Assembly: GCA_945902805.1 (NCBI GenBank)
Contig: CAMDMZ010000016.1
Span: 27,420-91,419, forward strand
From: Propionivibrio dicarboxylicus
GTDB taxonomy: Bacteria > Pseudomonadota > Gammaproteobacteria > Burkholderiales > Rhodocyclaceae
Direction of reading: 5' to 3'
DNA length: 64,000 nt
The notes under the pieces were generated by a model. That model was not told the origin of the DNA, searched no databases, and saw only the letters and a program-made list of their open reading frames with translations. Positions 1 through 37,613 of this stretch are shown here, in pieces; positions within the stretch are counted from its first letter, which is position 1, and each line of letters opens with the position of its first letter. The translations under genes were made by a program, and so were the position numbers.

Positions 1-380
1 AAGGCATCACCTTCCGTTTCGCCAGCGCCGCACACAAGGCCTTGTTTGACCAGGCGCCCGAAAAATACCTGCCGCAGTTTGGTGCCTATTGCGCCAATGG
101 CATTGTCTACGGCATCCCCTGGGGCGGCGATGCCGATACCTGGAAGATGATCAACGGCAAGCTCTACATCTTTGGTGGCCAAGGATCGAAAGACGCCTTT
201 GAGCTGGATGAGAAGGCCAACCTGGCCCTGGCCGAGAAATATTGGCGCGAGGAAATTGCCGGCCACAATAGTTTCGTGCAACGCTTCAAGCGGCTGATCC
301 TGCGCGTGCCGCACTACCGCAGCGGAGAAGATTTGGCGCGCGCCGTCGCACAAGCGAAGACGGCCGGAGCAACGAAATGA
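1..380 (+). CDS. YHS-domain protein, C-terminal part (5' end outside window)
   Basis: Frame 3 is open from base 3. The translation GITFRFASAAHKALFDQAPEKYLPQFGAYCANG... fits the YHS/TRASH-type pattern. Stop TGA 378-380 overlaps the next ATG (ATGA). Confidence 0.65.
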   Translation, partial: GITFRFASAAHKALFDQAPEKYLPQFGAYCANGIVYGIPWGGDADTWKMINGKLYIFGGQGSKDAFELDEKANLALAEKYWREEIAGHNSFVQRFKRLILRVPHYRSGEDLARAVAQAKTAGATK

Positions 381-1327: not shown

Positions 1328-1343
1328 GCCTAGACGCGTGTAT

Positions 1344-1369
1344 CGCCGTCCCGCCAGCACCGACTTTTT
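1344..1369 (+). repeat. dispersed 26-nt repeat copy R1 (CGCCGTCCCGCCAGCACCGACTTTTT)
   Basis: Exact consensus. Lies between the convergent egtD stop and the senA-like stop; its T-run overlaps the TAA of the minus-strand gene. Confidence 0.85.
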
Positions 1370-2534: not shown

Positions 2535-3543
2535 GAAACAAACCTCAACGAAAAATGGTGGGCAACAACTTGTCATTGTCACCCCGGCGCTGGCCGATGC
2601 CAATAATGGCAACTGGCAAACGGCCTGGCGCTGGCAGCGCTTTCTTTCGCCACTTTACCCGACTCGGCTGGTCAAGGCCTGGCCCGATGAACGCGCCGCT
2701 GACGATACGCTGATGATCGCCCTGCACGCGCGGCGCTCGGCCGATTCCATCGCTGCCTGGCACGCCCGGCATGGCAGCGACCGTCTCGCCGTTGTGCTGA
2801 CCGGTACCGACTTGTACCGCGATATCCGGCACGACGCGAAGGCACAACGTTCGCTGGCGCTGGCGCGGGCATTGGTGGTATTGCAGGAGTGTGCGCCGCA
2901 ATCGCTGCCAGAAGCGCTACGCGGCAAAGCCCGCGTCATCTTTCAATCAACCACCACCCGCCAGACCTTGCCCAAATCGCCGCACCGTCTGCGCGCCGTG
3001 ATGGTCGGCCATTTACGTGACGAAAAGTCGCCCAAGACTTTATTCGCAGCCGCCCGCCAGTTGGCGTCACACCCGGCCATTCATATCGATCATATCGGTG
3101 AAGCGCTCGATCCGGCGCTTGGTGCCGCCGCGCGTGCCACCATGGCCGTCGCCCCCAACTATCGCTGGCTGGGCGGCTTGCCACACGCCGAGGTGCGGCG
3201 ACGCATCCAGCGCGCCCACGTGTTAATTCACGCCAGCCGCATGGAAGGCGGCGCCCATGTGGTCATGGAGGCTGTCGCCAGCGGTACGCCCGTGCTGGCC
3301 TCGGCGATTGACGGCAATATCGGCATGCTGGGCGCCGACTACGCGGGCTATTTTCCCTGCGGTGATTCGGCGGCACTGGCAGCACTGATTCTGCGTTGCC
3401 ACGACGGTCACATGCAACCGGATGGCACAACTCTACTGGACCAGTTGGCGGCGCAATGCCGCGATCGCGCGCCCCTGTTCGAGCCGACGAGCGAGCGAAA
3501 CGCACTGCACCGTCTGGTCAATGAATTGCTTGGAGAGCATTGA
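2533..3543 (+). CDS. GT-B glycosyltransferase-like protein, SenB-like selenosugar synthase candidate
   Basis: The first in-frame ATG before the conserved N-terminus LVIVTPALADANNGNWQTAWRW is at 2533. GT4-like SRMEGGAHVVMEA motif. Stop abuts the SelD-fusion start (TGAATG). Confidence 0.65.
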   Translation: MKQTSTKNGGQQLVIVTPALADANNGNWQTAWRWQRFLSPLYPTRLVKAWPDERAADDTLMIALHARRSADSIAAWHARHGSDRLAVVLTGTDLYRDIRHDAKAQRSLALARALVVLQECAPQSLPEALRGKARVIFQSTTTRQTLPKSPHRLRAVMVGHLRDEKSPKTLFAAARQLASHPAIHIDHIGEALDPALGAAARATMAVAPNYRWLGGLPHAEVRRRIQRAHVLIHASRMEGGAHVVMEAVASGTPVLASAIDGNIGMLGADYAGYFPCGDSAALAALILRCHDGHMQPDGTTLLDQLAAQCRDRAPLFEPTSERNALHRLVNELLGEH

Positions 3544-5823
3544 ATGCAAGCCACTGCGACACCTGTTTTGAGAGACATCGTCATGATCGGCGGGGGCCAC
3601 AGCCACGTCGGCGTGCTCTACATGTTCGCCATGAAACCCATCCCCGGCGTGCGTCTGACGGTGATTTGCACGGATACCGATACGCCCTACTCGGGCATGC
3701 TGCCCGGCTACATCGCCGGCCACTACAGTTTTGACGACGTGCATATCGATTTACGCCGCCTGGCCGAATTTGCCGGTGCGCGCTACCTGCGCGATGAAGT
3801 GATCGGCATCGATCGCGCGTCGCGCAAAGTGCTGTGCCGAAACCGGCCGCCGGTACCCTACGATGTCCTGTCGATCAACATCGGCTCGACGCCCCGGCTG
3901 GATGGCGTCGCCGGGGCGAACGAGCACGCGGTGCCGGTCAAGCCGATCCGCCGTTTTAATGAACGCTGGCTGGCGTTGCTTGAGCGCGTTTGTCGCCATG
4001 ACGGCGCCACCACCATCGCCGTCGTCGGTGCCGGCGCGGGTGGGGTTGAGCTGGTCTTGTCCATGCAGTTCCGTTTGCGCAAAGAACTCATGGCTCTGGG
4101 GCGAAACCCCGACGCCCTGCGCTTCCATTTGTTCTCGGCTGACGCGCAAATCCTGCCGACACATAACGCCGCAGTACGCCGTGCCTTCGAGCAGGTGTTA
4201 GCCGAACGCGGCGTGATAGTGCATCGCGATGCCGAAGTCACGCAGCTCAGCGCCGGGCGCTTGCAAACCCGGGCCGGCGAGGTCGTCGAGGCTGACGAAA
4301 TTGTCTGGGTAACGCAAGCAGGGGGCGCCGCGTGGTTGCGCGATACCGGCTTGGCGCTCGACGACAAGGGTTTCATTCGCGTCCGTGACACGCTGCAAAC
4401 CGAAACGGACCCGCTGATTTTTGCGGCTGGTGATTGCGCTGCGATGATGGGACGGCCCTTGGAAAAAGCCGGTGTATTTGCCGTGCGCATGGGCCGCCCG
4501 CTGGCCGAGAATCTGCGCCGGACGCTGCTGCGTCAGCCCTTGAACGACTACCGCCCGCAGCAGCGCTGGCTGGCGCTGATCAGCACCGGCGACCAACACG
4601 CGATCGCCTCGCGCGGTGCGTTTTATGCGCGTGGCGATCTGGTCTGGCGCTGGAAAGACTGGATCGACCGCCGCTTCATGCGCAAGTTCACCGAGTTTTC
4701 CACCACCATGACGAGCACGGCGGCGACGGCCGATGCGACGATTCCGCTCGACGACGTGGAACAGACCCAGGCCATCTCGGCCATCGCCATGCGCTGCGGT
4801 GGCTGCGGTGCCAAGGTGGGTGCCAGCGTGCTCTCCCGCGCGCTGGCGAGCGTTCAGCCGATCGAGCGCGACGACGTCCTGATCGGCCTGCATGCACCCG
4901 ACGATGCCGCTGTGGTGCGCGTTCCCGCCGGCAAGGCGATGGTGCACACCGTCGACTTCTTCCGCGCCTTCATCGATGACCCGTACATCTTCGGCCGCAT
5001 CGCCGCCAATCACGCGCTCGGCGACGTCTTCGCCATGGGCGGTGAGGCGCAATCGGCGACGGCGATTGCCACCGTACCGCCGGGCCTGGAAAGCAAGGTG
5101 GAAGACACCGTGTTTCAAATGATGGCAGGCGCCGTGTCCGTACTGAACGACGCCGGCTGTGCGCTGGTCGGCGGCCATACCGGCGAAGGCAAGGAACTCG
5201 CGCTCGGCTTTGCCATCAACGGCCTGATCGACGAACAGCTCGACAGCGTGATGCGCAAAGGCGGCATGCGCCCGGGCGATGTGCTGATCCTGACCAAACC
5301 GATCGGCACTGGCACTTTGTTCGCTGCCCATGCCCAACTCAAGGCACGCGGGCGCTGGATCGATGCCGCGTTGGAGTCAATGCAGATTTCGAACCGGGCT
5401 GCCGTGCCCTGCCTGATCGCCCATGGCGCGACCGCCTGTACCGATTTGACTGGCTTCGGCCTGCTCGGCCATCTGGTCGAAATGACGCGGCCGTCAGGTG
5501 TCGATGCCGAGCTTGATCTGGCCGCCTTGCCGGTTCTCGACGGTGCCGCCGAAACCGCCGCAGCCGGTATTCTCAGTTCATTGCAGCCCGCCAATGTGCG
5601 CTTGCGGCGGGCGTTGCGCAATCAGGAAGCGGCGCTCAAACACCCCAACTATCCGCTCTTGTTCGATCCACAAACTGCCGGCGGCCTGCTTGCCAGCGTA
5701 CCGATGGCAAGTGCGGAAGCCTGTATCAACGAACTGCGCATTCTGGGCTACCCGGCGACCACGGGCATAGGCCGGATCGTCGCTCAAGGGGATGCATTGG
5801 AGCCGATCAGCCTATCGGTTTGA
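3544..5823 (+). CDS. selD: FAD-dependent pyridine nucleotide-disulfide oxidoreductase fused to selenide,water dikinase (SelD/SenC-like)
   Basis: 759 aa. N-terminal Rossmann motifs IVMIGGGHSH and VVGAGAGGVE. The C-terminal half carries the SelD glycine-rich loop RCGGCGAKVG (Cys421/Lys424) and an AIR-synthase-like fold (DDAAVV..., LVGGHT). Confidence 0.85.
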   Translation: MQATATPVLRDIVMIGGGHSHVGVLYMFAMKPIPGVRLTVICTDTDTPYSGMLPGYIAGHYSFDDVHIDLRRLAEFAGARYLRDEVIGIDRASRKVLCRNRPPVPYDVLSINIGSTPRLDGVAGANEHAVPVKPIRRFNERWLALLERVCRHDGATTIAVVGAGAGGVELVLSMQFRLRKELMALGRNPDALRFHLFSADAQILPTHNAAVRRAFEQVLAERGVIVHRDAEVTQLSAGRLQTRAGEVVEADEIVWVTQAGGAAWLRDTGLALDDKGFIRVRDTLQTETDPLIFAAGDCAAMMGRPLEKAGVFAVRMGRPLAENLRRTLLRQPLNDYRPQQRWLALISTGDQHAIASRGAFYARGDLVWRWKDWIDRRFMRKFTEFSTTMTSTAATADATIPLDDVEQTQAISAIAMRCGGCGAKVGASVLSRALASVQPIERDDVLIGLHAPDDAAVVRVPAGKAMVHTVDFFRAFIDDPYIFGRIAANHALGDVFAMGGEAQSATAIATVPPGLESKVEDTVFQMMAGAVSVLNDAGCALVGGHTGEGKELALGFAINGLIDEQLDSVMRKGGMRPGDVLILTKPIGTGTLFAAHAQLKARGRWIDAALESMQISNRAAVPCLIAHGATACTDLTGFGLLGHLVEMTRPSGVDAELDLAALPVLDGAAETAAAGILSSLQPANVRLRRALRNQEAALKHPNYPLLFDPQTAGGLLASVPMASAEACINELRILGYPATTGIGRIVAQGDALEPISLSV

Positions 5824-7336: not shown

Positions 7337-8377
7337 TCAGCAGCACCCGCAGTCTTCCTCGCCTGCGGGCGTCTCACCAAAGGGTAGGGCTTTGCCGCAG
7401 CCTTGAAAGATGCCGTAATGGCGCGTGAAGTCGCCAATGAAGTCGAAGTGCGGTGCCAGTCGACTCTCCTTGAGCATGCGATACGTATTGCCGCAGACCG
7501 GAAAGACCCGGCCGACTTCGATCCGGTGGTGCTTGTCGAGGGCGAAGGCGTGCGCATGCTCCGGAATGGTGCCGCGATAGATAACAGCCTGGCCGTGGTC
7601 CTCGCAGTCGGACTCCAGCCCGTCGAGATTGAACAGTCGGTAAGTCGCAGAGAAGAAACGCACTCCGGCGGTACGCGGCAGAAGTGCCGGATCGGTGATG
7701 GCGAGCGGACGATCCTCGACCAGGCGTGGGTCAGTAAAGCCGGCCGCGCGAGAAAGCCGCAGGAAATCATTCCAATAGAGCGCTCCGCCGAGACATTCAC
7801 CGTAGAGCACCGGGTCGTTCTTCACTGACTCCGGCACGCGCCGGTCGGCGTAGACATCGGAAAAATAGAACTTGCCGCCCGGCTTGAGCAAGCGTTGTAC
7901 GCCACGCAGCACGGCTTCCTTGTCGGGCGAGAGATTTACCACACAGTTGGAGACGATGACATCGAAGCTGCCCGGTTCCAGATCCAGTTCGTCGAGACGT
8001 TCGATGTAACCGGACAGGAAACGCACGTTGGCGAAACCGAAACATTCGGCGTGCCAGGTGCGATGCCGCTCGGCGACGGCGAGCTGTTCGTCGGTCATGT
8101 CCACGCCGACCACCTCCCCCTTGGGGCCGGCCATTTGCGCCAGGGCATATACATCACGCCCTGAACCGCTGCCGAGATCGAGCACGCGGCAGCCTTCCAG
8201 TAGCGGCGGGCAGACCAGCCCACAACCGTAATAGCGTTCCAGCACTTCCGGATGGATGCGCGCCAGCAGCGATTTGAGCCAGGCCGGCGCGCTGGAGGCG
8301 TCGCAGCAGGCAGATGTTTTCAGGTCGGCGGAGCCCGACAGTTGCTTGCCGTAGTAGTCCTTCACGAGTTCATGCAT
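7337..8377 (-). CDS. SAM-dependent methyltransferase, ArsM (arsenite methyltransferase)-like
   Basis: LDLGSGSGRD SAM motif plus ArsM-pattern cysteines: TSACC, YYGCGLVCP, SNCVVNL, YGECLGGAL. Cys-rich C-terminus DCGCC. Confidence 0.7.
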   Translation of the reverse strand: MHELVKDYYGKQLSGSADLKTSACCDASSAPAWLKSLLARIHPEVLERYYGCGLVCPPLLEGCRVLDLGSGSGRDVYALAQMAGPKGEVVGVDMTDEQLAVAERHRTWHAECFGFANVRFLSGYIERLDELDLEPGSFDVIVSNCVVNLSPDKEAVLRGVQRLLKPGGKFYFSDVYADRRVPESVKNDPVLYGECLGGALYWNDFLRLSRAAGFTDPRLVEDRPLAITDPALLPRTAGVRFFSATYRLFNLDGLESDCEDHGQAVIYRGTIPEHAHAFALDKHHRIEVGRVFPVCGNTYRMLKESRLAPHFDFIGDFTRHYGIFQGCGKALPFGETPAGEEDCGCC

Positions 8378-8399: not shown

Positions 8400-8912
8400 C
8401 TAGCGCGGCGTGATCGCTTGCAAAATGCCCTGCATCAAGACCAGCGGTGTGGGCGGACAGCCGGGGATGCGAACGTCGACGGGGATGACGTTTTCCACCG
8501 CGCCGCAGGTGGCGTAGTTCGGGCCGAACAAGGCGCCGACCTCACCGCAACCGCAGCCGCAATCACCCACCGCTACGACCAACTTGGGGTCGGGCGTGCA
8601 GTCGTAGACGATCTTCAGCGCGTTTTCCATGTTTTTGGTTACCGGCCCGGTGACCAGCAACATGTCGGCATGGCGCGGGCTGGCGACAAACTTGATGCCA
8701 CGCCCTTCGAGGTTGTAGTAGGGATTATTGAGCGCATGAATCTCCAGCTCGCAGCCGTTGCACGAACCGGCGTCGACCTGGCGGATGGTCAGAGCGCGGC
8801 CAAGGATAGTGAGAATTTCACCATGGAGGCGTTGGGTTTCGGCGGCGGGTATTTCCGGTACCGATTCTGTCACGATGCCGGTCTTGAAGATGCGTCTGAG
8901 CAGCGGAATCAC
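8400..8912 (-). CDS. NuoB/HycG-type small subunit of the Hyf/Ehr-like complex
   Basis: 170 aa with retained 4Fe-4S ligand motifs GSCNGCELE, GDCGCGCG and IPGCPP. ATGA overlap with the large-subunit stop. Confidence 0.85.
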   Translation of the reverse strand: MIPLLRRIFKTGIVTESVPEIPAAETQRLHGEILTILGRALTIRQVDAGSCNGCELEIHALNNPYYNLEGRGIKFVASPRHADMLLVTGPVTKNMENALKIVYDCTPDPKLVVAVGDCGCGCGEVGALFGPNYATCGAVENVIPVDVRIPGCPPTPLVLMQGILQAITPR

Positions 8913-10468
8913 AGGTCGGCCCCGCTATAGGAAAGATTGAACGACTTGTTGATGAGCGGGAAGTCGGGAACGATGTCGTTCATCACCGCATGTTCCAGCG
9001 CCGGCCAGCATTGCCAGGAGGGGTCGTGCGGATGCACGCGCGCCAGCTTGCCAACGGCATCGAATTCCAGGCCGACCAGCACTTCGCCACGCCAGCCTTC
9101 AATGACACCAAGGCCGGCACCCCCAGCCACCGGCGTGATCGTCGTCAGAATTTCGCCGGCCGGCATGCCGACCGCCATGGCGCGCAACAAGCGCAAGGAC
9201 TCGAAGATTTCGTCGAAACGCACCGCCACACGCGCCGCCACGTCGCCGCGCTCATCGGTAACCGGCCGCACGCCCAGCGCGGCATAGGGCGGTGGCGGCG
9301 TGTAATCCTGACGATATACCCGGCCATCGAGAATCATGCCGGTGGCGCGGGCGGCCATGCCGGTGAGCGAGAGTTCGTGGGCAAGGTCGGTATTGATGAT
9401 GCCGGTGGTGAGGAAGCGGTCTTGCAGACCGGCGTGATTGTCGTAGATGGCGCGCAGTTCGCTGACCTCGCGTGCGAATAGTTCGCATTGCTCGACCATG
9501 CGCGCCAGCGCTTCCGGCGCCAAATCGTGGCTGACGCCACCGGGCACGATGCGATCCATCATGAAGCGGTGGCCGAACAGATCGGCATTCAGGCGCAACC
9601 AGTCTTCCTTTAGACGCATGAATTGCGTCAGACCAAAGGCAAACGCGGCATCGTTGCCGAGCGCGCCGAGGTCGCCGAGATGATTGGCGACGCGCTCGCG
9701 CTCCAGCATCACGGCACGCAGCATGAGCGCGCGTGGTGATGGTGTAGCGCCGCACGCCGCTTCGACGGCCGCCGCATACGCCCAGGCATAAGCACAAGTG
9801 GAATCGCCGGAAATCCGCCCGATCAATTTCGCACCGGTCAAAAAGTCGGTGCTGGCGAGACGGTGCTCAACGCCCTTGTGCTGGTAACCGAGGCGTTGTT
9901 CCAGGCGCAACACGCGTTCTCCAACCACCGAGAAGCGGAAATGTCCGGGCTCAATGATACCGGCGTGGATCGGGCCGACCGGAATCTCGTGCGCGCCCTC
10001 TCCGCCGACCTTAACGAAGTCGTAGTCAGTGGGGGCATTGGTAAAGTCGGCATGATCGCCCGCATCATGGCGCAGCGGAAACCAATCGGCCGGCCAGCCG
10101 CCGTGGCGCAGCCAGGGGCGCTGGTCGGGACCATCGTGCCGGATGTCGAGCAAATCGAACGTGGCGCGCTGCATTCGGTTCGCGGCCGGGAAGATTCCCG
10201 ACAGATCGGGACACGTCGGATTTTCGGCAGGCAGATCGAGGCGCAACCACTGCCAGCCCTCGGTCAGCGCAAATACGCAGTGCAGGCGGAATCCGCCAGC
10301 TCGCTCGCGCTCATCGCTACCCCAAAGAGCCGACAATCGTCCCTGATGGCGGTGGACGGAAATGGCGTAGCGCAGCAGGTCTTCGCCATCAACCGCGCGG
10401 CCGTGCCAAACCGGCGCGCCCACCCCGGGCTGGGGAGTGAATTCGATGGGTTCGGCGTGGAAGCGCAT
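8909..10468 (-). CDS. NuoC-NuoD/HycE-type large subunit homologue lacking the Ni-Fe cysteine ligands
   Basis: Start set at ATG 10468 (MRFHAEPIEF), 2 nt after the upstream stop; the 628-aa track ORF is an extension. Shows GPIHAGIIEPGHFRF and LGYQHKGVEH. Reads GRISGDST where R-x-C-G-x-C is expected, and SFNLSYSGADL* where D-P-C-x-x-C is expected. Confidence 0.85.
   Translation of the reverse strand: MRFHAEPIEFTPQPGVGAPVWHGRAVDGEDLLRYAISVHRHQGRLSALWGSDERERAGGFRLHCVFALTEGWQWLRLDLPAENPTCPDLSGIFPAANRMQRATFDLLDIRHDGPDQRPWLRHGGWPADWFPLRHDAGDHADFTNAPTDYDFVKVGGEGAHEIPVGPIHAGIIEPGHFRFSVVGERVLRLEQRLGYQHKGVEHRLASTDFLTGAKLIGRISGDSTCAYAWAYAAAVEAACGATPSPRALMLRAVMLERERVANHLGDLGALGNDAAFAFGLTQFMRLKEDWLRLNADLFGHRFMMDRIVPGGVSHDLAPEALARMVEQCELFAREVSELRAIYDNHAGLQDRFLTTGIINTDLAHELSLTGMAARATGMILDGRVYRQDYTPPPPYAALGVRPVTDERGDVAARVAVRFDEIFESLRLLRAMAVGMPAGEILTTITPVAGGAGLGVIEGWRGEVLVGLEFDAVGKLARVHPHDPSWQCWPALEHAVMNDIVPDFPLINKSFNLSYSGADL
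9840..9866 (-). repeat. dispersed repeat copy R3, inside the large-subunit CDS
   Basis: AAAAAGTCGGTGCTGGCGAGACGGTGC on the plus strand (2 mismatches). Read in the gene sense as H-R-L-A-S-T-D-F-L. Confidence 0.75.
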
Positions 10469-10470
10469 CG

Positions 10471-11928
10471 CTAGCCCAGCATGCGCGCGGCTTCCTGGAA
10501 CCAGCGCGTCAGGTAAGGGGGAATGTAGAGCCCGAGCATCAGCACAATGGCCAGATGCAGGAACACTGGCGTGATGGCGGGTGCATGAGGCAAGCGCTTT
10601 GCCTCCGTCTCGCCGAACACCATGGGTTGCACCTTGCCGAATATTGCCGCGAAGGCGACGCCAAGCGCCAACAGCAGGAACGGCGTGGCCCAGGGATGAT
10701 GTTTCATGGCATGCGTCAGGATCATGAACTCGCTGGCGAAAACGCCGAATGGCGGCATGCCGAGAATCGCCAGCGTGCCCAGCATCAGGCCCCAACCGAT
10801 CAAGGGATTGACGTGTATCAGGCCGCGGATATCGTCCATCATTTGGGTGCCGGTTTTCTGCGTGGCATGGCCGACCGCGAAGAAGATGGCCGACTTGGTC
10901 AGCGAGTGCATAGTCATGTGCAGCAGGCCAGCGAAGTTGGCCACCGCACCGCCCATGCCGAAAGCGAAAGTGATCAGGCCCATGTGCTCGATGGAGGAAT
11001 AGGCAAACATGCGCTTGACGTCGCGCTGTCGCGAAAGAAAGAAGGCCGCCAGCAGCAGAGTGAACAAACCGAAGCCCATCATCAGGTTGCCAGCAAAGGC
11101 GCCCTCGATGGCACCGTCAGCGAGCACCTTGCAGCGCAGGATGGCGTACAGGGCGACATTGAGCAACAAACCAGAAAGCACGGCAGAAACCGGCGTCGGC
11201 CCCTCGGCGTGGGCGTCGGGCAGCCAGTTGTGCAGCGGCGCCAGGCCGACCTTGGTGCCATAGCCGACGAACAGAAAAATGAACGCCAGCGCCATGATAT
11301 TCGGCTCAAGAAAGGCCTTGACGTTGACCAGGTGCGTCCACAGCAAGGCGTTACCACTTTCACCCAGAATGCGTTCGGCGGCGAAGTACAGCAGGATGGT
11401 GCCGAACAGCGCCTGAGCGATACCAACGCCACAGAGGATGAAGTATTTCCAGGCCGCTTCCAGGCTGGCTGGCGTGCGGTAGAGCGATACCAATAGTACG
11501 GTGGTGAGTGTCGCCGCCTCCATCGCCACCCACAGAATGCCCATGTTGTTGGTGGTGAGCGCCACCAGCATGGTGAACATGAAGAGCTGGTACATGCTCT
11601 TGTAGAGCCGCAGGCGTGGAATGGTAAGGCGGCCGTGCGCGGCCTCGTTCTTCATGTAGGGGCCGGAAAAGATGCTGGTGGTGAGGCCGACAAACGCAGT
11701 CAAGGCGACAAAGAACACGTTGAGTGAATCGATGAAAAACTGCTCGCCAAAGGCAAAACGCGGGCCATCGGTAATGATGCTGATGGTCAGCCACACGGCG
11801 GCAATAAAGGTGCCGCCACTGGCAATGATGTTGAGATGAGGCGCCCAGTCGCGTTCGCCAAACACTGTCAGCAAGGCACCGCTGACGAGGGGAATGGCGA
11901 GCAGGATAACGAAGATATCGAACGTCAT
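10471..11928 (-). CDS. HyfF/NuoN-like antiporter-type membrane subunit
   Basis: 485-aa polytopic protein of the proton-conducting NuoM/N/Mrp family (WLPDAHAEGPTPVSA). ATGA overlap with the upstream gene. Confidence 0.8.
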   Translation of the reverse strand: MTFDIFVILLAIPLVSGALLTVFGERDWAPHLNIIASGGTFIAAVWLTISIITDGPRFAFGEQFFIDSLNVFFVALTAFVGLTTSIFSGPYMKNEAAHGRLTIPRLRLYKSMYQLFMFTMLVALTTNNMGILWVAMEAATLTTVLLVSLYRTPASLEAAWKYFILCGVGIAQALFGTILLYFAAERILGESGNALLWTHLVNVKAFLEPNIMALAFIFLFVGYGTKVGLAPLHNWLPDAHAEGPTPVSAVLSGLLLNVALYAILRCKVLADGAIEGAFAGNLMMGFGLFTLLLAAFFLSRQRDVKRMFAYSSIEHMGLITFAFGMGGAVANFAGLLHMTMHSLTKSAIFFAVGHATQKTGTQMMDDIRGLIHVNPLIGWGLMLGTLAILGMPPFGVFASEFMILTHAMKHHPWATPFLLLALGVAFAAIFGKVQPMVFGETEAKRLPHAPAITPVFLHLAIVLMLGLYIPPYLTRWFQEAARMLG

Positions 11929-12596
11929 CAGTTGTCCTTGAGGCGTTCCATGTGGTGGATGTCCAGGCTGTCGAACTGGTCGCGAATCTGGAAGAAGAAC
12001 ACACCGAGAATGAGCGCGCCGACCAGAACGTCCAGTGCGATTCCGAGTTCAACGACCATCGGCATGCCGTAAGTGGCGCTGGTGGCGGCGAGGAACAGAC
12101 CATTTTCCATCGACAGGAAGCCCACCACCTGGGAAATCGCCTTACGCCGCGTAATCATCATCAGGAAGGCGAGCATCACCACGGCCAGCGCAATACCCAA
12201 TGTGCCGCGCGTGATGGTGTGCGAAAGCTGCGAGATCGGCAAGGCGACATTGAAAGCAATGATGACCAGGCCGATGCCCACCAGCATGGTGGTCGGAATA
12301 TTGATCAGTGCCTCGACCTCGCCCTTGATTTGCAGGCGATGCATCAGCCGGTTGAGGATCCACGGTAGTAACAAGGCCTTCAACAGGAGCGTTAGCCCGG
12401 CCGACCAGTACAGGTGCGATTGGCCGGTGGTCACCGCCACCACGAGCGTGGATAGAAACAGCATGAAACCTTGCAGGGCAAACAGGTTGATGAGTTGCAT
12501 CACACGCCGTTGCGCCAGCATGGCGAAGGTCAGCAGCAGAATCACAGATGCGCATAAGTTGATGAGTTGCGCAGTGAGCGGGATAGTGGCGCTCAT
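11928..12596 (-). CDS. HyfE-like small membrane subunit
   Basis: 222-aa hydrophobic protein in the HyfE position. ATGA overlaps at both ends. Confidence 0.7.
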   Translation of the reverse strand: MSATIPLTAQLINLCASVILLLTFAMLAQRRVMQLINLFALQGFMLFLSTLVVAVTTGQSHLYWSAGLTLLLKALLLPWILNRLMHRLQIKGEVEALINIPTTMLVGIGLVIIAFNVALPISQLSHTITRGTLGIALAVVMLAFLMMITRRKAISQVVGFLSMENGLFLAATSATYGMPMVVELGIALDVLVGALILGVFFFQIRDQFDSLDIHHMERLKDN

Positions 12597-13549
12597 GCTT
12601 TCACCTCAAGCAGCAATCTGACCAGCAAGCCGAGAACAGCGAGTAGGAACGCGGTGCCGAGATACTCCGGGGCGCGGAAAATGCGCAGCTTGGCATTGAC
12701 CGTTTCGAGCAGAGCCAACAGGAAGCCACCCACCAGCAGCTTCAACACCAGCAGCGGAATTGCTGCCACCAGCGCCATGAAATTGTCGCGTTCGGCGATG
12801 CCCCAGGGCAGAAACAGAGCTAGCCCAAGACAGGAGTACGCATAGAGCTTGAGGCAGGCCGCCCATTCAATCAGCGCGAGATGGCGCCCTGAATATTCGA
12901 GGATCATGGCCTCGTGGATCATTGTCAGCTCAAGATGGGTGGCGGGGTTATCCACGGGCACGCGGGCATTTTCGGCGAAGGCGACGAAGGTGAAGGCGAT
13001 TCCGGCGAAGGCGAGACTGGGATAAATGATGAAGTCACGATGCGCAAGCGTCTCGACGATGGTCGCCACCGAGGTCGATTGAGCGATCATCGCCACGGTA
13101 AAGATGACCATCAGCAGCGCCGGTTCGGCGAGGAAGCCGATCAGCATTTCACGCCTGCCGCCGAGAGTGCCGAACGAGGTGCCGATATCCATTGCCGCCA
13201 AGGAAATGAATACCCGCGCTAGACCGAAGACACCGACCAGCGCCAACGCGTCCGCCGCCGGCGCCAGCGGCAGGTCGGTCGACAAGGTGGGAATGATGGC
13301 GCAGGCCAGCACCATGCAGCCGAAGACGACGAAAGGTGCAAAGCGAAACAGCGGTGATGCCGTTTCAGCCAGCACCACATCTTTGTTGAAAAGCTTGCGC
13401 AGCATGAAGTATGGCTGCCACAAGGGCGGCGCGGAACGACTTTGCAGCCAGGCCCGACACATGCCCAGCCAGCCCAACAGCAGCGGCGCCAGTACCAGCG
13501 CCAGAGCAATGGCGAAAGCTTGGCCGATCAAACCGGAAATACTGATCAC
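12593..13549 (-). CDS. HyfC/HycD/NuoH-like membrane subunit
   Basis: Start set at GTG 13549 (VISISGLIGQAFAIALAL...), overlapping the upstream TGA (GTGA). The 604-aa track ORF is an extension into the upstream gene. Confidence 0.75.
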   Translation of the reverse strand: MISISGLIGQAFAIALALVLAPLLLGWLGMCRAWLQSRSAPPLWQPYFMLRKLFNKDVVLAETASPLFRFAPFVVFGCMVLACAIIPTLSTDLPLAPAADALALVGVFGLARVFISLAAMDIGTSFGTLGGRREMLIGFLAEPALLMVIFTVAMIAQSTSVATIVETLAHRDFIIYPSLAFAGIAFTFVAFAENARVPVDNPATHLELTMIHEAMILEYSGRHLALIEWAACLKLYAYSCLGLALFLPWGIAERDNFMALVAAIPLLVLKLLVGGFLLALLETVNAKLRIFRAPEYLGTAFLLAVLGLLVRLLLEVKA

Positions 13550-15564
13550 GGTCGCGCCACCAACAGCAAGAGCAGCAGCGTGATGAAGCTGTACATCAGA
13601 TAGACCGCAATGCGACCGCCCTGCAAGGTGGTGATGCGCATCGAAAGCCAGGCGGCCAGGCGCGCAATTGGCAGATAAAGCCAATGCCAGAAATGATCCT
13701 CGACTTGAACGCTGTAATACGGTTCGCGATCGCGGGCAGTCGGTAAGTGGCGCTGCATACGGAACATCGGCTCGAAGATGCGGCGTATCGGCTGGCTGAA
13801 ACCTTCGGCCGTATCCTGCGCGCGCGGCCCTTGAAAATGGTACCCGCAATCCCACGCCGCTGAGCGTCGCCCACGACCATGGTAAAGGTGATGGACCAGC
13901 CAGCGCCCGAGCCAAACCGAGAGGACGATGGTCACCAGAAAGATAACCGACTCGTAACTGGCTCGTTCCGGCGAGATCGGCGCCAGCATCCACCAACCGT
14001 GGTCGCGCACATGTTCGGACAGCCCAGCGCCCAACAGCTGGCGGGTGGCCGCATCGATGCGCAGGATGACGGTTGCCGGCATGATGCCGAGCAACACCGT
14101 GATCAGGGCCAGCCAGACCAGTCCGGCCTTTTCCCAAACCCCGGCATCGTGGGCGTCCTTGAGCGAATCTTCGCGCATCTGACCAAGAAAGATGATGCCG
14201 TAGAACTTGACCATGGCGAAGCCGGCCAGCGCCGCGACCAGCGCCACTACAGCGGCGGCGACGGGAACGACCATGTTGAGCCAGGCATGCGGCAAACCCG
14301 GCGAAAAGAGAAAGCTCTGCAGCAACAGCCATTCGGACACAAAGCCGGAAAGTGGTGGCAAACCGGCACTGGCGATTACGCCGACCAAGGCCAGCCAGGC
14401 CACCCAAGGCATACGGTGAATCAAACCACCGAGTTTGCCCAGGCTACGTTCCTTGGTGGCATGCAACACCGAACCCGTGCAAAGGAAGAGCAGGCTTTTG
14501 AATCCGGCGTGGGCAAGGCAATGGTAGAAGACGGCGGTCAAGGCCAGCGCAGCCAGAGCCTCCATGCGGTAACTATGGAAGATCAGCGCCAGGCCAATAC
14601 CGATCGCCAGCAAGCCGATGTTTTCGATGGACGAATAGGCGAGCAGACGCTTCATGTCGGATTGCACGGTGGAATACAGCACACCGAACAGCGCGGTCGC
14701 CAGCCCGATCGCCAGCGCCACCACGCCCCACCACCAAATGGGTGTGCCAACCAGATCGAAGCTAACGCGCAGCAAGCCATAAATGGCGGTCTTCAGCATC
14801 ACGCCGCTCATCAACGCAGACACGGGCGACGGTGCCGCCGGATGCGCTTCTGGCAGCCAGACATGCAGCGGCAATAAACCGGCCTTGGCACCAAATCCCA
14901 CCAGCGCCAGCAAATAGGCGGCCGAGGACCAGAAGGGCGAAAGCTGCTGCGCCCGCATACCGGCGAAACTGTAGTCGCCACTGCCCCCGGCACCCCCCGT
15001 CATCACACCAAACGACAGCAAGATCGCAATCGCGCCAATATGGGCGATCAGCAGGTACAAGAATCCGGCGCGACGGATGGTCTCGTGACGATGATCGGTC
15101 GTCACCAGAAAGAAAGAAGACAAAGCCATGGTTTCCCAGGCCACCATGAACGCGTAGGCATCATCGGCCAGCAACACCAGCAACATACTGGCGAGAAAGA
15201 TGTGATATTCGAAACACAACAGACCCGGCGCGGTGCCTTCGCCCTGCCGAAAATAACCAGCAGCAAAGATCGAAATGCCGGCCGAGACAAAACCTAGCAG
15301 CGTCACGAAGATGGCGGAAAGGTTGTCGAGCCGCAGATGGAAAGGCAGATCGGGCAGGCCAATAACCAACACCGCAGTCTGCGACGTGGCACCGAGCGAA
15401 GCAAGGCCGACGATGCCCGCCAACACGCTGACCAGGGCACCCAGCGGAAACAGTGTCTTGGCGATGAAGCGGGTTTTGCGCGGCGCCATAAGCCCGGCCA
15501 GACCGAGAATCGCCCAGACACAGGCGGCAATCAGCAGGGTATCGATAGCGAGCAATGATGGCAT
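13546..15564 (-). CDS. HyfB/NuoL-like antiporter-type membrane subunit
   Basis: 672-aa polytopic protein with NuoL/Mrp motifs (LPLHVWLPEAHPAAPSPVSALMSG). Confidence 0.85.
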   Translation of the reverse strand: MPSLLAIDTLLIAACVWAILGLAGLMAPRKTRFIAKTLFPLGALVSVLAGIVGLASLGATSQTAVLVIGLPDLPFHLRLDNLSAIFVTLLGFVSAGISIFAAGYFRQGEGTAPGLLCFEYHIFLASMLLVLLADDAYAFMVAWETMALSSFFLVTTDHRHETIRRAGFLYLLIAHIGAIAILLSFGVMTGGAGGSGDYSFAGMRAQQLSPFWSSAAYLLALVGFGAKAGLLPLHVWLPEAHPAAPSPVSALMSGVMLKTAIYGLLRVSFDLVGTPIWWWGVVALAIGLATALFGVLYSTVQSDMKRLLAYSSIENIGLLAIGIGLALIFHSYRMEALAALALTAVFYHCLAHAGFKSLLFLCTGSVLHATKERSLGKLGGLIHRMPWVAWLALVGVIASAGLPPLSGFVSEWLLLQSFLFSPGLPHAWLNMVVPVAAAVVALVAALAGFAMVKFYGIIFLGQMREDSLKDAHDAGVWEKAGLVWLALITVLLGIMPATVILRIDAATRQLLGAGLSEHVRDHGWWMLAPISPERASYESVIFLVTIVLSVWLGRWLVHHLYHGRGRRSAAWDCGYHFQGPRAQDTAEGFSQPIRRIFEPMFRMQRHLPTARDREPYYSVQVEDHFWHWLYLPIARLAAWLSMRITTLQGGRIAVYLMYSFITLLLLLLVARP

Positions 15565-15612: not shown

Positions 15613-16680
15613 TCAGGAACCGGTTTTGGTCTTCGCGTTGGCCTTGACGTTGACGCTGTTCGCCGCCACAGAAACCCTGTTGCGGCCCGATTCCTTCGAG
15701 CGATAGAGCGCACCATCGGCTCGTTCGATAAGCTGCGCCGTGGTTTCTCCCGGAACAAAGCCAGCAACACCAATTGATATGGTGAGTTGCGCCAGTTCCT
15801 GGTTATTGTCGGTGCGGCGAATGCGGCTGGTTTCGACACTTTGCCGAATTTTTTCGGCGACACAAAGTGCGCCCTGAATCGCGGTGTAGGGCAAAAGAAT
15901 GACGAACTCCTCGCCACCGTAGCGCGCCGCCGTATCAATACCTTTGACGTTCTTCTTGAGAATCTGCCCCAGCGCCCGGATCACCTTGTCGCCGAACATG
16001 TGACCGTAGCTGTCATTGATGCGTTTGAAGTGATCAATGTCCGCCATCAGCAAACAGGGGCCGATCGTATCCGGGGTCAGCGCAGCCAGACATTCGTTGA
16101 TGGCAAGGTCAAAGCCGCGCCGGTTCGACAATCCAGTCAGCGCATCCACCAACGCATCTTCCCTGGCGCGCTCGACCTCATGGCGTAAGCGTTCAATCTC
16201 GTTCTGGCTTTCGTCGAGACGCGTCTTCAGAGTGCTGATCGCGCCTTGCATGTCGCGCGTATTGCCCAGCACCTCATCCACGTGCAGGCACGCTTCATCC
16301 TTTAACTCGGGGTGTGCCAGGCCGCCAGACCATTTCTCCAGCGAGTCACCGAATCGATTGGCCTGATCGCCGGCCGTCGCGGCAGACTGCGAAATATCGG
16401 CCAGGATTTCCTGGAATCCGGCGCTGATCCGGGTTGCTGAATCCTCGTCGAGTTGAGCTACGTACTGCTGAAACAGTTGGTGGGTCTGTGCATCATCAAG
16501 GCGCGCATTATTCTGGGTCAGTGCGTCCATGGCCAACTTGAGTGGCTTGTTGATCCCGGCTACGTACTCGTACCAGATCGCAAAGCTGATCGGATGCACA
16601 CCGGCAGCTTGTCTGGTCATCAAGGGGAGTGCCAAACGGAAATATTCACCGCATTGCTCTCGGCTATGCTGATATTTCAT
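15613..16680 (-). CDS. cytoplasmic diguanylate cyclase (GGDEF)
   Basis: 355 aa: N-terminal sensory and coiled-coil region, GGDEF domain with RYGGEEF. Ends 48 nt upstream of the HyfB-like start on the same strand. Confidence 0.85.
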   Translation of the reverse strand: MKYQHSREQCGEYFRLALPLMTRQAAGVHPISFAIWYEYVAGINKPLKLAMDALTQNNARLDDAQTHQLFQQYVAQLDEDSATRISAGFQEILADISQSAATAGDQANRFGDSLEKWSGGLAHPELKDEACLHVDEVLGNTRDMQGAISTLKTRLDESQNEIERLRHEVERAREDALVDALTGLSNRRGFDLAINECLAALTPDTIGPCLLMADIDHFKRINDSYGHMFGDKVIRALGQILKKNVKGIDTAARYGGEEFVILLPYTAIQGALCVAEKIRQSVETSRIRRTDNNQELAQLTISIGVAGFVPGETTAQLIERADGALYRSKESGRNRVSVAANSVNVKANAKTKTGS

Positions 16681-16987
16681 GTCGAACCGTCACGTTAAGA
16701 CTTACACCGCAAATATAGGAACTAAATGGTCGCAATCACCACGTTGGAGTACGCGTTGATTTGAATCTCCGGGCGAAAAGCCACTCCGAAAATGCAACAG
16801 GATTTTGGATTGTAGCTGCCTTTGGAGACATTGCTACCGGACACTTTGTCGATTTCTGTGCACCGACGATGGCTTCTTGGCCCTGCGAAACAGCGTTTTA
16901 GTCGAAATGTAAGCAATCCGCGTGAAAGTCGTCAAAATTGGACCAACCAGTCGTCGCTGCGGCTGACCAACAACGCCAGGAGTGTTC

Positions 16988-19144
16988 ATGTCGATGCGTA
17001 AATTGTTGCTGCTACTGATCTTTGTCCTCGTCGGCACTGCCTATGTGGCCTTTGACCTCGGCCAGTATCTTTCCCTGGCGGGGCTGAAAGCACAGCAATC
17101 CGCCATCGAATCCTATCGCCTCGCCAATCCCCTCTTGGCGGTCGTGATCTATTGCCTGATCTACGTAATGGTCACCGCACTCTCGCTCCCCGGCGCGGCG
17201 CTGATGACGCTGGCCGGGGGCGCGATATTCGGTTTTTGGTGGGGAACGCTGATCGTCTCGTTTGCTTCTTCGATTGGCGCCGCGCTGGCTTTTCTCGCTT
17301 CGCGCTTTCTGTTGCGCGATTGGGTCACGGCGCGCTTCGGTGAGCGTTTGCGCGCCATCGATGACGGTGTGCAGCGCGAAGGCGCCTTCTATCTCTTCAC
17401 CCTGCGCCTGGTCCCCGTGTTTCCCTTTTTCCTGGTGAATCTGCTGCTCGGCCTTACGGCGATGAAGGCGACCACGTTTTACTGGGTCAGCCAGATTGGG
17501 ATGCTGGCCGGCACTGCGGTGTACGTGAATGCCGGAACACAATTGGGCGGGATTGAATCCTTGTCCGGCATCGTCTCGCCGGGCTTACTGTTTTCGTTTG
17601 CCTTGTTGGGCGTGTTTCCCCTAGTGGCCAAAAAAATCGTGGCGGCGGTACGCTCCAATCAGATCTATGCCAAATGGCCGAAGCCGCGCCGCTTCGACCG
17701 CAACCTGATTGTCATCGGCGGCGGCAGCGCGGGACTGGTGACGGCGTACATCGCGGCGGCGGTCAAAGCCAAAGTCACGCTGATCGAGAAACACCGCCTT
17801 GGCGGCGATTGCCTGAATACCGGCTGCGTGCCCTCCAAAGCGCTGATTCGCTCTGCCAAGTTCCTGTCGCACCAGCAACGGGCGGAAGAATTCGGAATGC
17901 GCCGTCCCGCCAGCACCGACTTTTCGTTTGCTGAGGTGATGGAGCGGGTGCAGAAGGTGATCAAGACCATCGAGCCGCATGATTCGGTCGAGCGTTATAC
18001 CGCGCTCGGCGTCGATGTCATCGAAGGCACGGCAAAGATCGTCTCGCCGTGGCAGGTCGACGTCACCCGCCACGATGGTGCAACCGAAAGACTATCGACC
18101 CGCAGCATCGTCATCGCAGCGGGCGCAAGGCCCTTCGTGCCACCGATTCCTGGCCTTGAGGAAGTCGGCTATCTGACCTCGGACACCGTGTGGGCATTGC
18201 GCGAATTACCGCGCCGCCTGATCGTCCTCGGTGGCGGACCGATTGGAACCGAACTGACGCAAGCCTTTGCCCGCTTCGGTGCCCAGGTGACGCAAGTGGA
18301 AATGGCAGCGCGGATTTTGATCCGCGAAGACCCGGAGGTATCGAAACTGGTCACCCAACGCTTTCGTGCCGAAGGCATTGCTGTCCTGACGAATCACCGG
18401 GCCAAACAGTTTGTCGTCAACCATGGCGAGAAGATCCTGATCGCCGAGCATGCCGGAAGTGACGTTCGTATTCCCTTTGACGCGGTATTGGTGGCAGTCG
18501 GTCGCGTGGCCAATCTCACCGGCTACGGACTGGAAGGGATCGGCGTCACGGTGTCGCGTACGGTGACCACCAACCCTTTCCTGCAGACCAACTATCCCAA
18601 CATCTATGCCGCCGGGGATGTTGCCGGCCCTTTCCAGTTCACCCACACGGCGGCCCACCAGGCGTGGTATGCCACAGTCAACGCGCTGTTCGATCCGTTC
18701 AAAAAGTTCAAGGCCGATTACTCGGTGATTCCATGGGCGACCTTCGTCGAACCGGAAGTCGCGCGCGTCGGCCTTAACGAGCAGGAAGCCAAAGAGCAAG
18801 GCATTGCCTACGAAGTGAGTCGCTACAACATTGACGATCTTGACCGCGCGATTGCTGATAGCGAAGCGCACGGATTTATCAAGGTGCTGACCGTGCCAGG
18901 TAAGGACCGGATTCTCGGCGTCACCATTGTGGGCGAGCATGCCGGCGACCTGATCGCGGAGTACGTTCTGGCCATGAAACATGGCATCGGTCTGAACAAG
19001 ATACTCGGCACCATCCATATTTATCCGACGCTGGCCGAGGCGAACCAATATGTGGCCGGAGTCTGGAAGAAGGCACATGCGCCGGAACAATTACTGGTCT
19101 GGGTAGGGCGCTTTCATGCCTGGCGGCGCGGCGACGCCACATGA
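16988..19144 (+). CDS. DedA/TVP38-TMEM64 membrane domain fused to a class-I pyridine nucleotide-disulfide oxidoreductase
   Basis: The N-terminal ~230 aa are polytopic (SNARE-associated/DedA type). Then GGGSAGL FAD motif, redox CxxxxC GGDCLNTGCVPSK and a dimerisation domain. No MerA-type C-terminal Cys pair. ATG 16988 preferred (AGGAG 5 nt upstream). Confidence 0.8.
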   Translation: MSMRKLLLLLIFVLVGTAYVAFDLGQYLSLAGLKAQQSAIESYRLANPLLAVVIYCLIYVMVTALSLPGAALMTLAGGAIFGFWWGTLIVSFASSIGAALAFLASRFLLRDWVTARFGERLRAIDDGVQREGAFYLFTLRLVPVFPFFLVNLLLGLTAMKATTFYWVSQIGMLAGTAVYVNAGTQLGGIESLSGIVSPGLLFSFALLGVFPLVAKKIVAAVRSNQIYAKWPKPRRFDRNLIVIGGGSAGLVTAYIAAAVKAKVTLIEKHRLGGDCLNTGCVPSKALIRSAKFLSHQQRAEEFGMRRPASTDFSFAEVMERVQKVIKTIEPHDSVERYTALGVDVIEGTAKIVSPWQVDVTRHDGATERLSTRSIVIAAGARPFVPPIPGLEEVGYLTSDTVWALRELPRRLIVLGGGPIGTELTQAFARFGAQVTQVEMAARILIREDPEVSKLVTQRFRAEGIAVLTNHRAKQFVVNHGEKILIAEHAGSDVRIPFDAVLVAVGRVANLTGYGLEGIGVTVSRTVTTNPFLQTNYPNIYAAGDVAGPFQFTHTAAHQAWYATVNALFDPFKKFKADYSVIPWATFVEPEVARVGLNEQEAKEQGIAYEVSRYNIDDLDRAIADSEAHGFIKVLTVPGKDRILGVTIVGEHAGDLIAEYVLAMKHGIGLNKILGTIHIYPTLAEANQYVAGVWKKAHAPEQLLVWVGRFHAWRRGDAT
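17900..17924 (+). repeat. dispersed repeat copy R4, inside the DedA-reductase CDS
   Basis: CGCCGTCCCGCCAGCACCGACTTTT with no mismatch, translated R-R-P-A-S-T-D-F. Confidence 0.8.
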
Positions 19145-37542: not shown

Positions 37543-37578
37543 TGAAAACCGCTCGCCCAATGGAAATTGCCAACCAAG

Positions 37579-37603
37579 CGCCGTCCCGCCAAAGCCGACT
37601 TTT
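37579..37603 (+). repeat. dispersed repeat copy R8
   Basis: CGCCGTCCCGCCAAAGCCGACTTTT in the 71-nt tpsA-tpsB spacer. Confidence 0.75.
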
Positions 37604-37613
37604 AGGATCGACC

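Follow-up and report, generated by a model that had tools for sequence, protein, structure and literature searches.

A six-gene Ehr/Hyq-type locus without Ni-Fe ligands or a ferredoxin subunit in a Rhodocyclaceae genome

Complexes of the Ehr (energy-converting hydrogenase related) type, which reportedly owe their name to Coppi (2005) and Marreiros et al. (2013), are relatives of the group 4 [NiFe] hydrogenases that possess no Ni-Fe ligands. They are known from Geobacter sulfurreducens (GSU0739-45), Mycobacterium tuberculosis (Rv0082-87), Nitrospira, and ammonia-oxidizing archaea, and contain NuoL-like, HyfE-like, large, and small subunits; the function of the family is unexplained, and Ehr is a loose label over several lineages devoid of the Ni-Fe cysteines. 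Hundreds of bacterial species, among them M. tuberculosis, nitrifiers, iron and sulfur oxidizers, rhizobia, and methanotrophs, carry Ehr or Hyq complexes, and with the evolutionary position of these complexes between hydrogenases and complex I, their role is a question of bioenergetics. Here, a locus of this kind was analyzed that occupies positions 8400-15564 (minus strand) of a 64,000-nucleotide (nt) stretch of Propionivibrio dicarboxylicus DNA, hereafter the window. It very probably encodes an intact Ehr/Hyq-type complex derived from a Hyf-like (group 4f-like) [NiFe] hydrogenase, in which both ends of the electron path have been lost and which is no canonical hydrogenase. The locus is a further member of a named and widespread family and no new kind of system.

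In Azorhizobium caulinodans, the NifA-dependent hyqRBCEFGI genes have been reported by one laboratory to be necessary for normal diazotrophic growth, for H2 recycling at 20 µM O2, and for H2 evolution at <1 µM O2 (Ng et al. 2009, PMC2650096; Sprecher et al. 2012, PMC3357923). The same authors point out that neither CxxC motif is present in HyqG, and they call a Ni-Fe site "uncertain, if not unlikely" (PMC2650096, PMC3357923). The Rv0081-87 cluster of M. tuberculosis is of the Ehr type, and this organism has no Ni-Fe maturation genes (PMC6728331). Ehr subunits of Geobacter peak in abundance on formate (PMC7894505), and H2 does not induce the Ehr of Nitrospira. A 2025-26 preprint describes a "group 4f" complex of Methylocystis that is induced by 4.2-4.5 log2 units at pH 5; its motif "AARVS" suggests that it is of the cysteine-less type, to which it probably belongs. 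The same preprint counts this probable counterpart as a group 4f [NiFe] hydrogenase.

The six genes of the window locus are translationally coupled and lie end to end, with overlaps of 4 nt or 1 nt or a gap of 2 nt. Starting from the upstream end, they encode a HyfB/HyqB-like, antiporter-like (NuoL-type) membrane subunit of 672 residues (13546-15564), a HyfC/HycD/NuoH-like membrane subunit of 318 residues (12593-13549), whose GTG start overlaps the upstream stop by 4 nt, a HyfE/HyqE-like small membrane subunit of 222 residues (11928-12596), a HyfF/HyqF-like, antiporter-like (NuoM/N-type) subunit of 485 residues (10471-11928), a NuoC-NuoD/HycE-type large subunit of 519 residues without Ni-Fe ligands (8909-10468), and a NuoB/HycG-type small subunit of 170 residues with one [4Fe-4S] site (8400-8912), which again has a GTG start and a 4-nt overlap. 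Pfam and NCBIfam back the family assignment of all six subunits. BLASTP identities to the Escherichia coli proteins are 36% for HyfB, 31-34% for HycD/HyfC, 25% for HyfE, 42% for HyfF, 30% for HycE/HyfG, and 41% for HyfI/HycG. These results bear out the first-pass annotation of this DNA, which had named six co-directional genes for HyfB-, HyfC/NuoH-, HyfE-, and HyfF-like, large, and small subunits. Its assignment to the Ehr class likewise fits the published description of Ehr, that is, no Ni-Fe cysteine ligands, a NuoB-like iron-sulfur subunit, and NuoH-like and antiporter-like subunits. It had omitted how common the family is and also hyqBCEFGI, a relative on which H2 flux has been claimed, from work in vivo, to depend.

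The Hyq "endo-hydrogenase", the nearest system to have been studied, agrees with the window locus in its six structural genes (B, C, E, F, G, and I) and in their order, without equivalents of HyfA, HyfD, and HyfH, and its fused NuoC-NuoD large subunit of about 500 residues carries neither CxxC motif. HyqI has a CxxC plus two further cysteines (Cys55, Cys58, Cys112, and Cys152) for one N2-type cluster, the counterparts in the window being Cys50, Cys53, Cys118, and Cys152. A Hyq-type protein from Falsiroseomonas (P0137; 504 residues; Cys 261, 491, and 497) shares 46% identity with the window large subunit. The window cluster is putatively orthologous to A. caulinodans hyq. Yet, several differences are present: Cys258, Cys491, and Cys497 of the alphaproteobacterial HyqG are replaced here by Gly271, Ile506, and Leu512, in columns that vary family-wide; there is no hyqR, a GGDEF cyclase gene lying upstream instead, and no sigma-54 consensus match upstream; and the host is a Rhodocyclaceae-like betaproteobacterium.

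The large subunit matches Pfam Complex1_30kDa and Complex1_49kDa, has no match to Pfam NiFeSe_Hases, and is accepted by no NCBIfam family model. No close relative has a solved structure, the best match in the Protein Data Bank being E. coli HycE (7z0s_E, phmmer E = 5e-51), with about 30% identity. In the phmmer alignment, R-V-C-G-I-C of HycE stands opposite R-I-S-G-D-S and D-P-C-Y-S-C opposite N-L-S-Y-S-G, so that the four Ni-Fe cysteines of HycE correspond to Ser220, Ser223, Ser513, and Gly516. The remnant of the first motif, S220-G221-D222-S223 in place of C-G-x-C, is encoded at 9800-9811 (minus strand), with TCC serine codons at 9809-9811 and 9800-9802, and that of the second, N-L-S513-Y-S-G516 in place of D-P-C-x-x-C, at 8921-8938 (minus strand), as a check of the DNA confirmed. 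The loss of all four ligands, which the first-pass annotation had claimed from a manual alignment, thus stands, and the codons lie exactly where it had placed them. A search for shifted ligands found none: most relatives have Val in place of Cys225, which lies beside the first motif, and all other cysteines of the protein are unconserved as well. A 44-sequence family alignment reaching down to 32% identity contains no cysteine column conserved at 90% or more, and none of its 39 invariant columns is cysteine. The protein stops 3 residues past the second motif and has no C-terminal extension like that removed from HycE. An AlphaFold2 model of the subunit (predicted local distance difference test, pLDDT, 88; predicted template modeling score 0.92) resembles HycE most closely, with a template modeling score of 0.91, and E. 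coli NuoCD comes next (0.84). Inside this model, pLDDT falls below 50 in a single segment, the invariant β1-β2 loop GPIHAGI (residues 166-172, ~9953-9973); the equivalent loop of NuoD is a mobile coupling element in complex I.

The replacements are shared across a large family. All but two of the 120 closest large-subunit homologs, which are 72-96% identical and come mostly from Rhodocyclaceae and Sulfuritalea metagenome bins, carry R[IV]SGD[SA], the two exceptions having a single cysteine each, and NLSY[SA]G is likewise kept with rare variants. At E<=0.001, exhaustively searching 1.8 billion cluster representatives gave 5390 relatives. A full-length set of 87 sequences, made up of the query, HycE, HyfG, NuoCD, and 83 representatives close to the query, contains 62-67 that are without the four cysteines (Cys-less) and 19 that have at least three (NiFe-type); the Cys-less motifs in this diverse set read [RSK][IV]SGD[STEN] and NLSY[SA]G. 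With each GTDB species represented by one genome, a pattern scan gave at least 598 stretches that were confirmed as relatives, and the best 80 of these were used for the comparisons of related loci given below. They belong to Rhodocyclaceae, Gallionella, Sideroxyarcus, Thiobacillus, Paraburkholderia, Burkholderia, Methylibium, Thiomonas, Rhodanobacter, Steroidobacter, Acidithiobacillus, Acidobacteriaceae, Nitrospirota, Methylococcales, and Mariprofundus. Culturable carriers found by the scan include Paraburkholderia haematera LMG 31837, Burkholderia pyrrocinia MSMB1755, Thiomonas sp. FB-6, and Rhodanobacter lindaniclasticus DSM 17932. The gene order B-C-E-F-large-small is kept in up to 80 of these loci from Beta- and Gammaproteobacteria, Acidobacteriota, and Nitrospirota. 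One locus from Nitrospirota (L064, 2-12116) holds two tandem Ehr clusters, the first cut by the contig end and the second complete. In a neighbor-joining tree, the Cys-less sequences fall into one group with weak bootstrap values (8/50 to 18/60); no claim of monophyly or of a single loss event is made on this tree. Near-identical proteins are publicly annotated as "Ni,Fe-hydrogenase III large subunit", "hyfG", "NADH-quinone oxidoreductase subunit C", or "hydrogenase expression protein HypE". Through such annotations, surveys of H2 metabolism may over-count, and Cys-less genes should not be tallied as H2 metabolism in metagenome surveys.

To locate what separates the two types, the residues of 67 Cys-less sequences were compared with those of 19 NiFe-type sequences (17 relatives, HycE, and HyfG). 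The NiFe-type relatives share 33-37% identity with the window large subunit and 40-46% with some Cys-less members. Nearly all residues around the site are common to both groups, including GP-HAGIIEPGHFRF and KSFNL-Y--D, and only a few positions divide them. In the Cys-less set, the places of the four cysteines are taken by Ser/Ala, Ser/Thr/Glu/Asn, Ser, and Gly. At the variable residue between the first two cysteines, Asp222 is found in 64 of the 67 Cys-less sequences (60/61 once odd sequences are removed), whereas the 19 NiFe-type sequences have Val, Ala, Ile, or similar residues, never Asp. Asp273 is present in 61/67, the NiFe-type sequences mostly having Gly at this position; its counterpart at the quinone site of complex I is Asp139 in the four-helix bundle of Thermus thermophilus Nqo4, which is Asp325 in E. 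coli NuoCD. Asp482, which often takes the place of Ser, is less strict than these two (49/67), and the following Pro483, Ala in the NiFe-type sequences, is also Pro in NuoCD. Arg481 is found in all 19 NiFe-type sequences and is relaxed in the Cys-less set (Arg in 30, Lys in 10, and His in 9 of 67), with His in the window protein.

A second difference lies outside the large subunit. Five informative NiFe-type sister loci (L085, L089, L090, L091, and L092), which probably correspond to HydDB group 4f ("Ehf"), resemble the window locus in their B-C-E-F-large-small order, their IIEPGHFRF and KSFNL-Y motifs, and the DTHLELTM loop of their NuoH-like subunit, but they keep the four Ni-Fe cysteines and Arg481. 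All five also have a 2x[4Fe-4S] ferredoxin unit, either as a subunit encoded between the large and small genes or as a domain fused to the small subunit. This module is found in none of 76 Cys-less loci, where a median of 13 nt separates the large gene from the small gene behind it and no CxxCxxCxxxC motif is encoded between the two genes (76/76). Since both the ferredoxin module and the Ni-Fe ligands are gone, electron entry and catalytic exit have been lost together, and the single cluster between them was kept. Three points are new here: the Cys-less clade has lost the ferredoxin-like subunit along with the Ni-Fe ligands, it has gained conserved Asp222 and Asp273 and, less strictly, Asp482, and its clusters have no conserved redox partner nearby. 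As the first-pass annotation had claimed, the larger open reading frames (ORFs) of the window include no gene of the HycF/NuoI type, no hyp or endopeptidase gene, and no formate dehydrogenase, and the only CxxCxxCxxxC motif in ORFs of at least 50 residues is that of an indolepyruvate-oxidoreductase-like gene (54463-56322). In one of the sister loci (L089, 2434-3258), the small subunit is fused to a degenerate ferredoxin domain and lacks the CxxC and GCPP cluster cysteines; the large subunit of this locus still has all four Ni-Fe cysteines.

The remaining parts of the complex are well preserved. The small subunit (Pfam Oxidored_q6, 2e-28) retains its 4Fe-4S cysteines, as initially annotated: Cys50, Cys53, Cys118, and Cys152, located at the proximal/N2 [4Fe-4S] positions, are conserved across 41 family members, in which Cys120 and Cys122 of the GDCGCGCG stretch are unconserved. 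It has neither a fused ferredoxin domain nor a HycG-type C-terminal extension. The HyfB-like subunit (Pfam Proton_antipo_M, 2e-51) scores 882 bits with the NCBIfam model "hydrogenase 4 subunit B" (cut-off 667) and the HyfF-like subunit 857 bits with "hydrogenase 4 subunit F" (cut-off 543), both above the NCBI equivalog cut-offs. Proton-pathway residues are found at the NuoL/M/N positions of both, namely E144, K227, K258, H348, K356, and E411 in the former and E137, K226, H337, K345, and E400 in the latter, so that each has the set of Glu in transmembrane helix (TM) 5, Lys in TM7, Lys/His in TM8, and Glu/Lys in TM12. The HyfE-like subunit matches the NCBIfam model "hydrogenase 4 membrane subunit" (9e-25) below its cut-off and has conserved membrane carboxylates in its MENG and VVELG motifs. 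In the HyfC/NuoH-like subunit (Pfam NADHdh, 5e-34), the EAEQEL of HycD and NuoH in the TM5-6 loop is replaced by DNPATHLELTMIHE, and this replacement is conserved in the family. The change from EAEQEL to ATHLEL was considered as a mark of the Cys-less type and rejected: one NiFe-type sister locus has the same loop, so the change does not go with the absence of the Ni-Fe ligands. Across the related loci, the median identity is highest for HyfF (71.5%), followed by HyfC (66%) and HyfE (65%), compared with 53% for the large subunit.

The comparison can be extended to better-characterized enzymes. The cluster is homologous subunit for subunit to E. coli Hyf and Hyc (structure 7Z0S), but it lacks HyfA/HycB, HyfD, HyfH/HycF, HyfJ, HyfR, FocB, and the Ni-Fe ligands, and its small subunit is about 85 residues shorter. 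With complex I (NuoB, NuoCD, NuoH, and NuoL/M/N), it shares the fold, the N2-type cluster, the charged residues of the antiporter-like subunits, Asp273, and Pro483. It differs in having Gly221 and Ile172 in place of the quinone ligands Tyr87 and His38 of Nqo4 (T. thermophilus numbering), in binding the cluster via CxxC instead of the tandem CC, and in the absence of equivalents of NuoI, NuoA, and NuoEFG, HyfE being only a distant homolog of the NuoJ type.

What the complex keeps is a single NuoB-type [4Fe-4S] site, a NuoH-like coupling subunit, and two antiporter-like subunits competent as proton channels. We tentatively propose, as the likeliest of the readings considered, that it acts as a reversible redox device coupled to the proton motive force (pmf) and built around the single cluster, with putative donor, acceptor, and direction; the mechanism suggested for this clade is drawn from sequence and conservation. 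Reduction or oxidation of the cluster would alter the charge or protonation of a remodeled polar pocket, in which four thiolates have been exchanged for hydroxyls and carboxylates and which would comprise Ser220, Asp222, Ser/Thr223, Asp273, Asp482, and Ser513 together with the retained Glu173 and His176. This change would be relayed via the NuoH-like subunit to the proton channels of HyfB and HyfF. One electron partner might be a dissociable cytoplasmic one-electron carrier docking at the place of the lost ferredoxin subunit, and the other a membrane acceptor, probably a quinone, close to the old Ni-Fe pocket. In the forward direction, excess low-potential reductant would be dumped into the respiratory chain with concomitant proton pumping; in the backward direction, the pmf would be spent on regenerating reductant. 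Published expression and genetic data on the relatives (NifA-dependent hyq, Geobacter, Nitrospira, and Methylocystis) favor this reading, tying them to redox or energy stress and not to H2 as a substrate. Several points weigh against it. The canonical quinone ligands of complex I are absent, as described above. To our knowledge, all characterized ferredoxin-using relatives take their electrons via a NuoI-type subunit, the loss of which therefore argues against ferredoxin as the donor. Moreover, the joint loss of electron entry and exit could mean that through-electron transfer has been abandoned, and the A. caulinodans data indicate a direct role in H2 turnover (PMC2650096, PMC3357923).

It is also conceivable, albeit unlikely, that the Cys-less clade forms a distinct minimal complex-I-like machine of aerobes and microaerophiles rather than an impaired hydrogenase, in which the carboxylate pocket (Asp222, Asp273, and often Asp482) would be a new catalytic or proton-loading site, and quinol plus pmf would yield low-potential reductant. 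If true, this would be a missing route of reverse electron transport for nitrogen fixers, nitrite oxidizers, and hypoxic mycobacteria. The problem posed by the family is sharpened by the joint loss of the ferredoxin subunit, the gained acidic residues, the unconserved Hyq cysteines that had been put forward as a substitute site, and the absence of a linked partner enzyme, and such residues are concrete targets for mutagenesis and structural work.

The pmf-coupled redox device has to be weighed against other explanations. A doubtful one is that the complex is an ion or proton transporter without through-electron transfer, a Mrp-like antiporter or a pH-homeostasis pump, whose peripheral arm and iron-sulfur cluster would be structural or would serve as a redox or O2 sensor gating transport. 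Such a transporter would account for the simultaneous loss of the ferredoxin module as entry and the Ni-Fe site as exit, and it is in line with the membrane subunits being the best conserved, with the retention of all proton-pathway residues, with the strong acid-stress induction in the probable Methylocystis relative, and with recurrent neighbors that are SulP/STAS and CitMHS transporters and ArsR regulators, not redox enzymes. However, Mrp antiporters function without any such arm, and about 40 positions of the large subunit near the old site, like the four cluster ligands, are invariant down to 35% identity, which exceeds the need of a mere scaffold. Distinctly unlikely is the proposal made for Hyq, namely a non-canonical hydrogenase acting as a reversible H2:quinone oxidoreductase with a catalytic site that holds no CxxC-ligated Ni-Fe. 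The match of the six genes and their order to hyqBCEFGI speaks for it, as do physiological data: deletion of hyqR-I in A. caulinodans raised H2 evolution about 15-fold at 20 µM O2 and, in a hupSL background, lowered it about 4-fold at <1 µM O2, and high rates of H2 evolution persisted in a nifK hupSL strain. Nevertheless, this evidence is in vivo only and comes from one laboratory, and the deletion also removes the regulator hyqR. Not a single Ni-Fe ligand is left, the three HyqG cysteines are replaced here and variable family-wide, and Arg481 is relaxed in the Cys-less set, with His in the window protein; furthermore, M. tuberculosis has Ehr yet no Ni-Fe maturation genes, and the Nitrospira Ehr does not respond to H2.

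The complex might also be the membrane module of a formate-oxidizing respiratory complex (FDH-Ehr), for which a formate dehydrogenase encoded elsewhere would be the electron source. Descent from formate-hydrogenlyase-type enzymes, the FDH-Ehr complex proposed for Margulisbacteria and Saganbacteria, the abundance maximum of the Geobacter Ehr subunits on formate, and the co-induction of formate dehydrogenases with the Methylocystis complex all point in this direction. We consider it very unlikely, as no formate dehydrogenase is encoded in the window or next to the cluster at any of the 80 related loci examined, and the complex lacks the ferredoxin-type subunit through which formate dehydrogenase is connected with the hydrogenase module of E. 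coli. A selenium- or sulfur-reducing complex that would serve the nearby selenoneine genes, an idea modeled on the archaeal MBS sulfane reductase, is scarcely credible. It was suggested by the egtD-senA-senB genes and SelD fusion at 377-5823, an ArsM-like gene only 23 nt away, and a DedA-oxidoreductase fusion upstream, but these neighbors stand beside the cluster in 0/80 related loci, including the two closest (74% identity). That the operon is a decaying hydrogenase relic of functionless pseudogenes is practically untenable: all four catalytic cysteines are indeed lost, but the reading frames are intact and translationally coupled, at least 598 relatives exist in species-representative genomes, and the conservation of the replacement residues in the 120 close homologs, with their two single-cysteine exceptions, and in relatives down to 35% identity refutes decay. 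The probability left over after these readings goes to something not yet imagined.

The immediate neighbors of the operon are an ArsM-like methyltransferase gene, GGDEF cyclase genes on both sides, a DedA-oxidoreductase fusion gene, and the selenoneine cluster. The ArsM-like gene for an S-adenosylmethionine methyltransferase (7337-8377, minus strand; Pfam Methyltransf_31, 2.5e-37) begins 23 nt downstream of the small subunit gene, and a gene for a GGDEF diguanylate cyclase (15613-16680, minus strand; Pfam GGDEF, 6e-43) ends 48 nt upstream of the HyfB-like gene. Because both are so close and lie on the same strand, the transcription unit may be longer than 8400-15564. The ArsM-like gene is possibly co-transcribed with the complex here, yet it is outside the conserved unit, with no homolog beside the cluster in the 80 related loci; the GGDEF gene, with homologs in 2/80, is outside it as well. 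Scans for sigma-70 promoters and terminators gave chance-level results, and the simple sigma-54 consensus TGGC-N7-TTGCW had no match near the operon and a chance-level number window-wide. The ArsM-like protein scores 171 bits with the NCBIfam arsenite methyltransferase model, below the cut-off of 263, and could be a selenium methyltransferase, given the neighboring sen genes.

The selenoneine cluster (377-5823) consists of egtD (377-1327, plus strand), senA (1368-2534, minus strand), senB (2713-3543, plus strand), and a pyridine-nucleotide-disulfide oxidoreductase-SelD fusion gene (3544-5823, plus strand). The egtD, senA, and senB products and both domains of the fusion score above their NCBIfam cut-offs. 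When the window neighbors were compared with the 80 related loci by tblastn, none was conserved beside the cluster; therefore, a selenium link of the complex was rejected, and the adjacency of the selenoneine genes is coincidental. De novo clustering of the flanking ORFs in the related loci found no conserved redox partner. The recurrent neighbors are a spermidine-synthase-like gene (10 loci), SulP/STAS transporters, ArsR regulators, and a pyridine-nucleotide-disulfide oxidoreductase. The spermidine-synthase-like gene, described as the sole recurrent neighbor not concerned with transport, encodes ~275-340 residues with a weak Pfam Spermine_synth match and adjoins the Ehr cluster on the same strand in Beta- and Gammaproteobacteria and Acidobacteriota (L011, L015, L017, L019, L026, L035, L043, L044, L046, and L053). 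The idea that the ArsM-like gene is its counterpart in the window was rejected, as the two have no sequence similarity. SulP/STAS anion transporter genes lie directly upstream of the HyfB-like gene in four loci (L002, the closest relative, L013, L060, and L073), and CitMHS/TrkA-C anion transporters are found at two further loci (L065 and L071).

Several other features of the window were recorded. Divergent from the operon, a gene at 16982-19144 (plus strand) encodes a 720-residue fusion of a DedA/VTT membrane domain with a flavoprotein resembling mercuric reductase and lipoamide dehydrogenase. An oxidative-stress block at 57677-63716 contains genes for AhpC (57677-58240), an AhpF-like protein (58323-59888), and a KatG-like peroxidase (61548-63716), together with a second EgtB (60094-61386) that scores as a true ergothioneine EgtB. 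Finally, a two-partner secretion pair at 33700-39317 comprises a 1280-residue TpsA-type exoprotein with a C-terminal caspase (Peptidase_C14) domain (33700-37542) and its partner, a ShlB/FhaC-type transporter (37542-39317).

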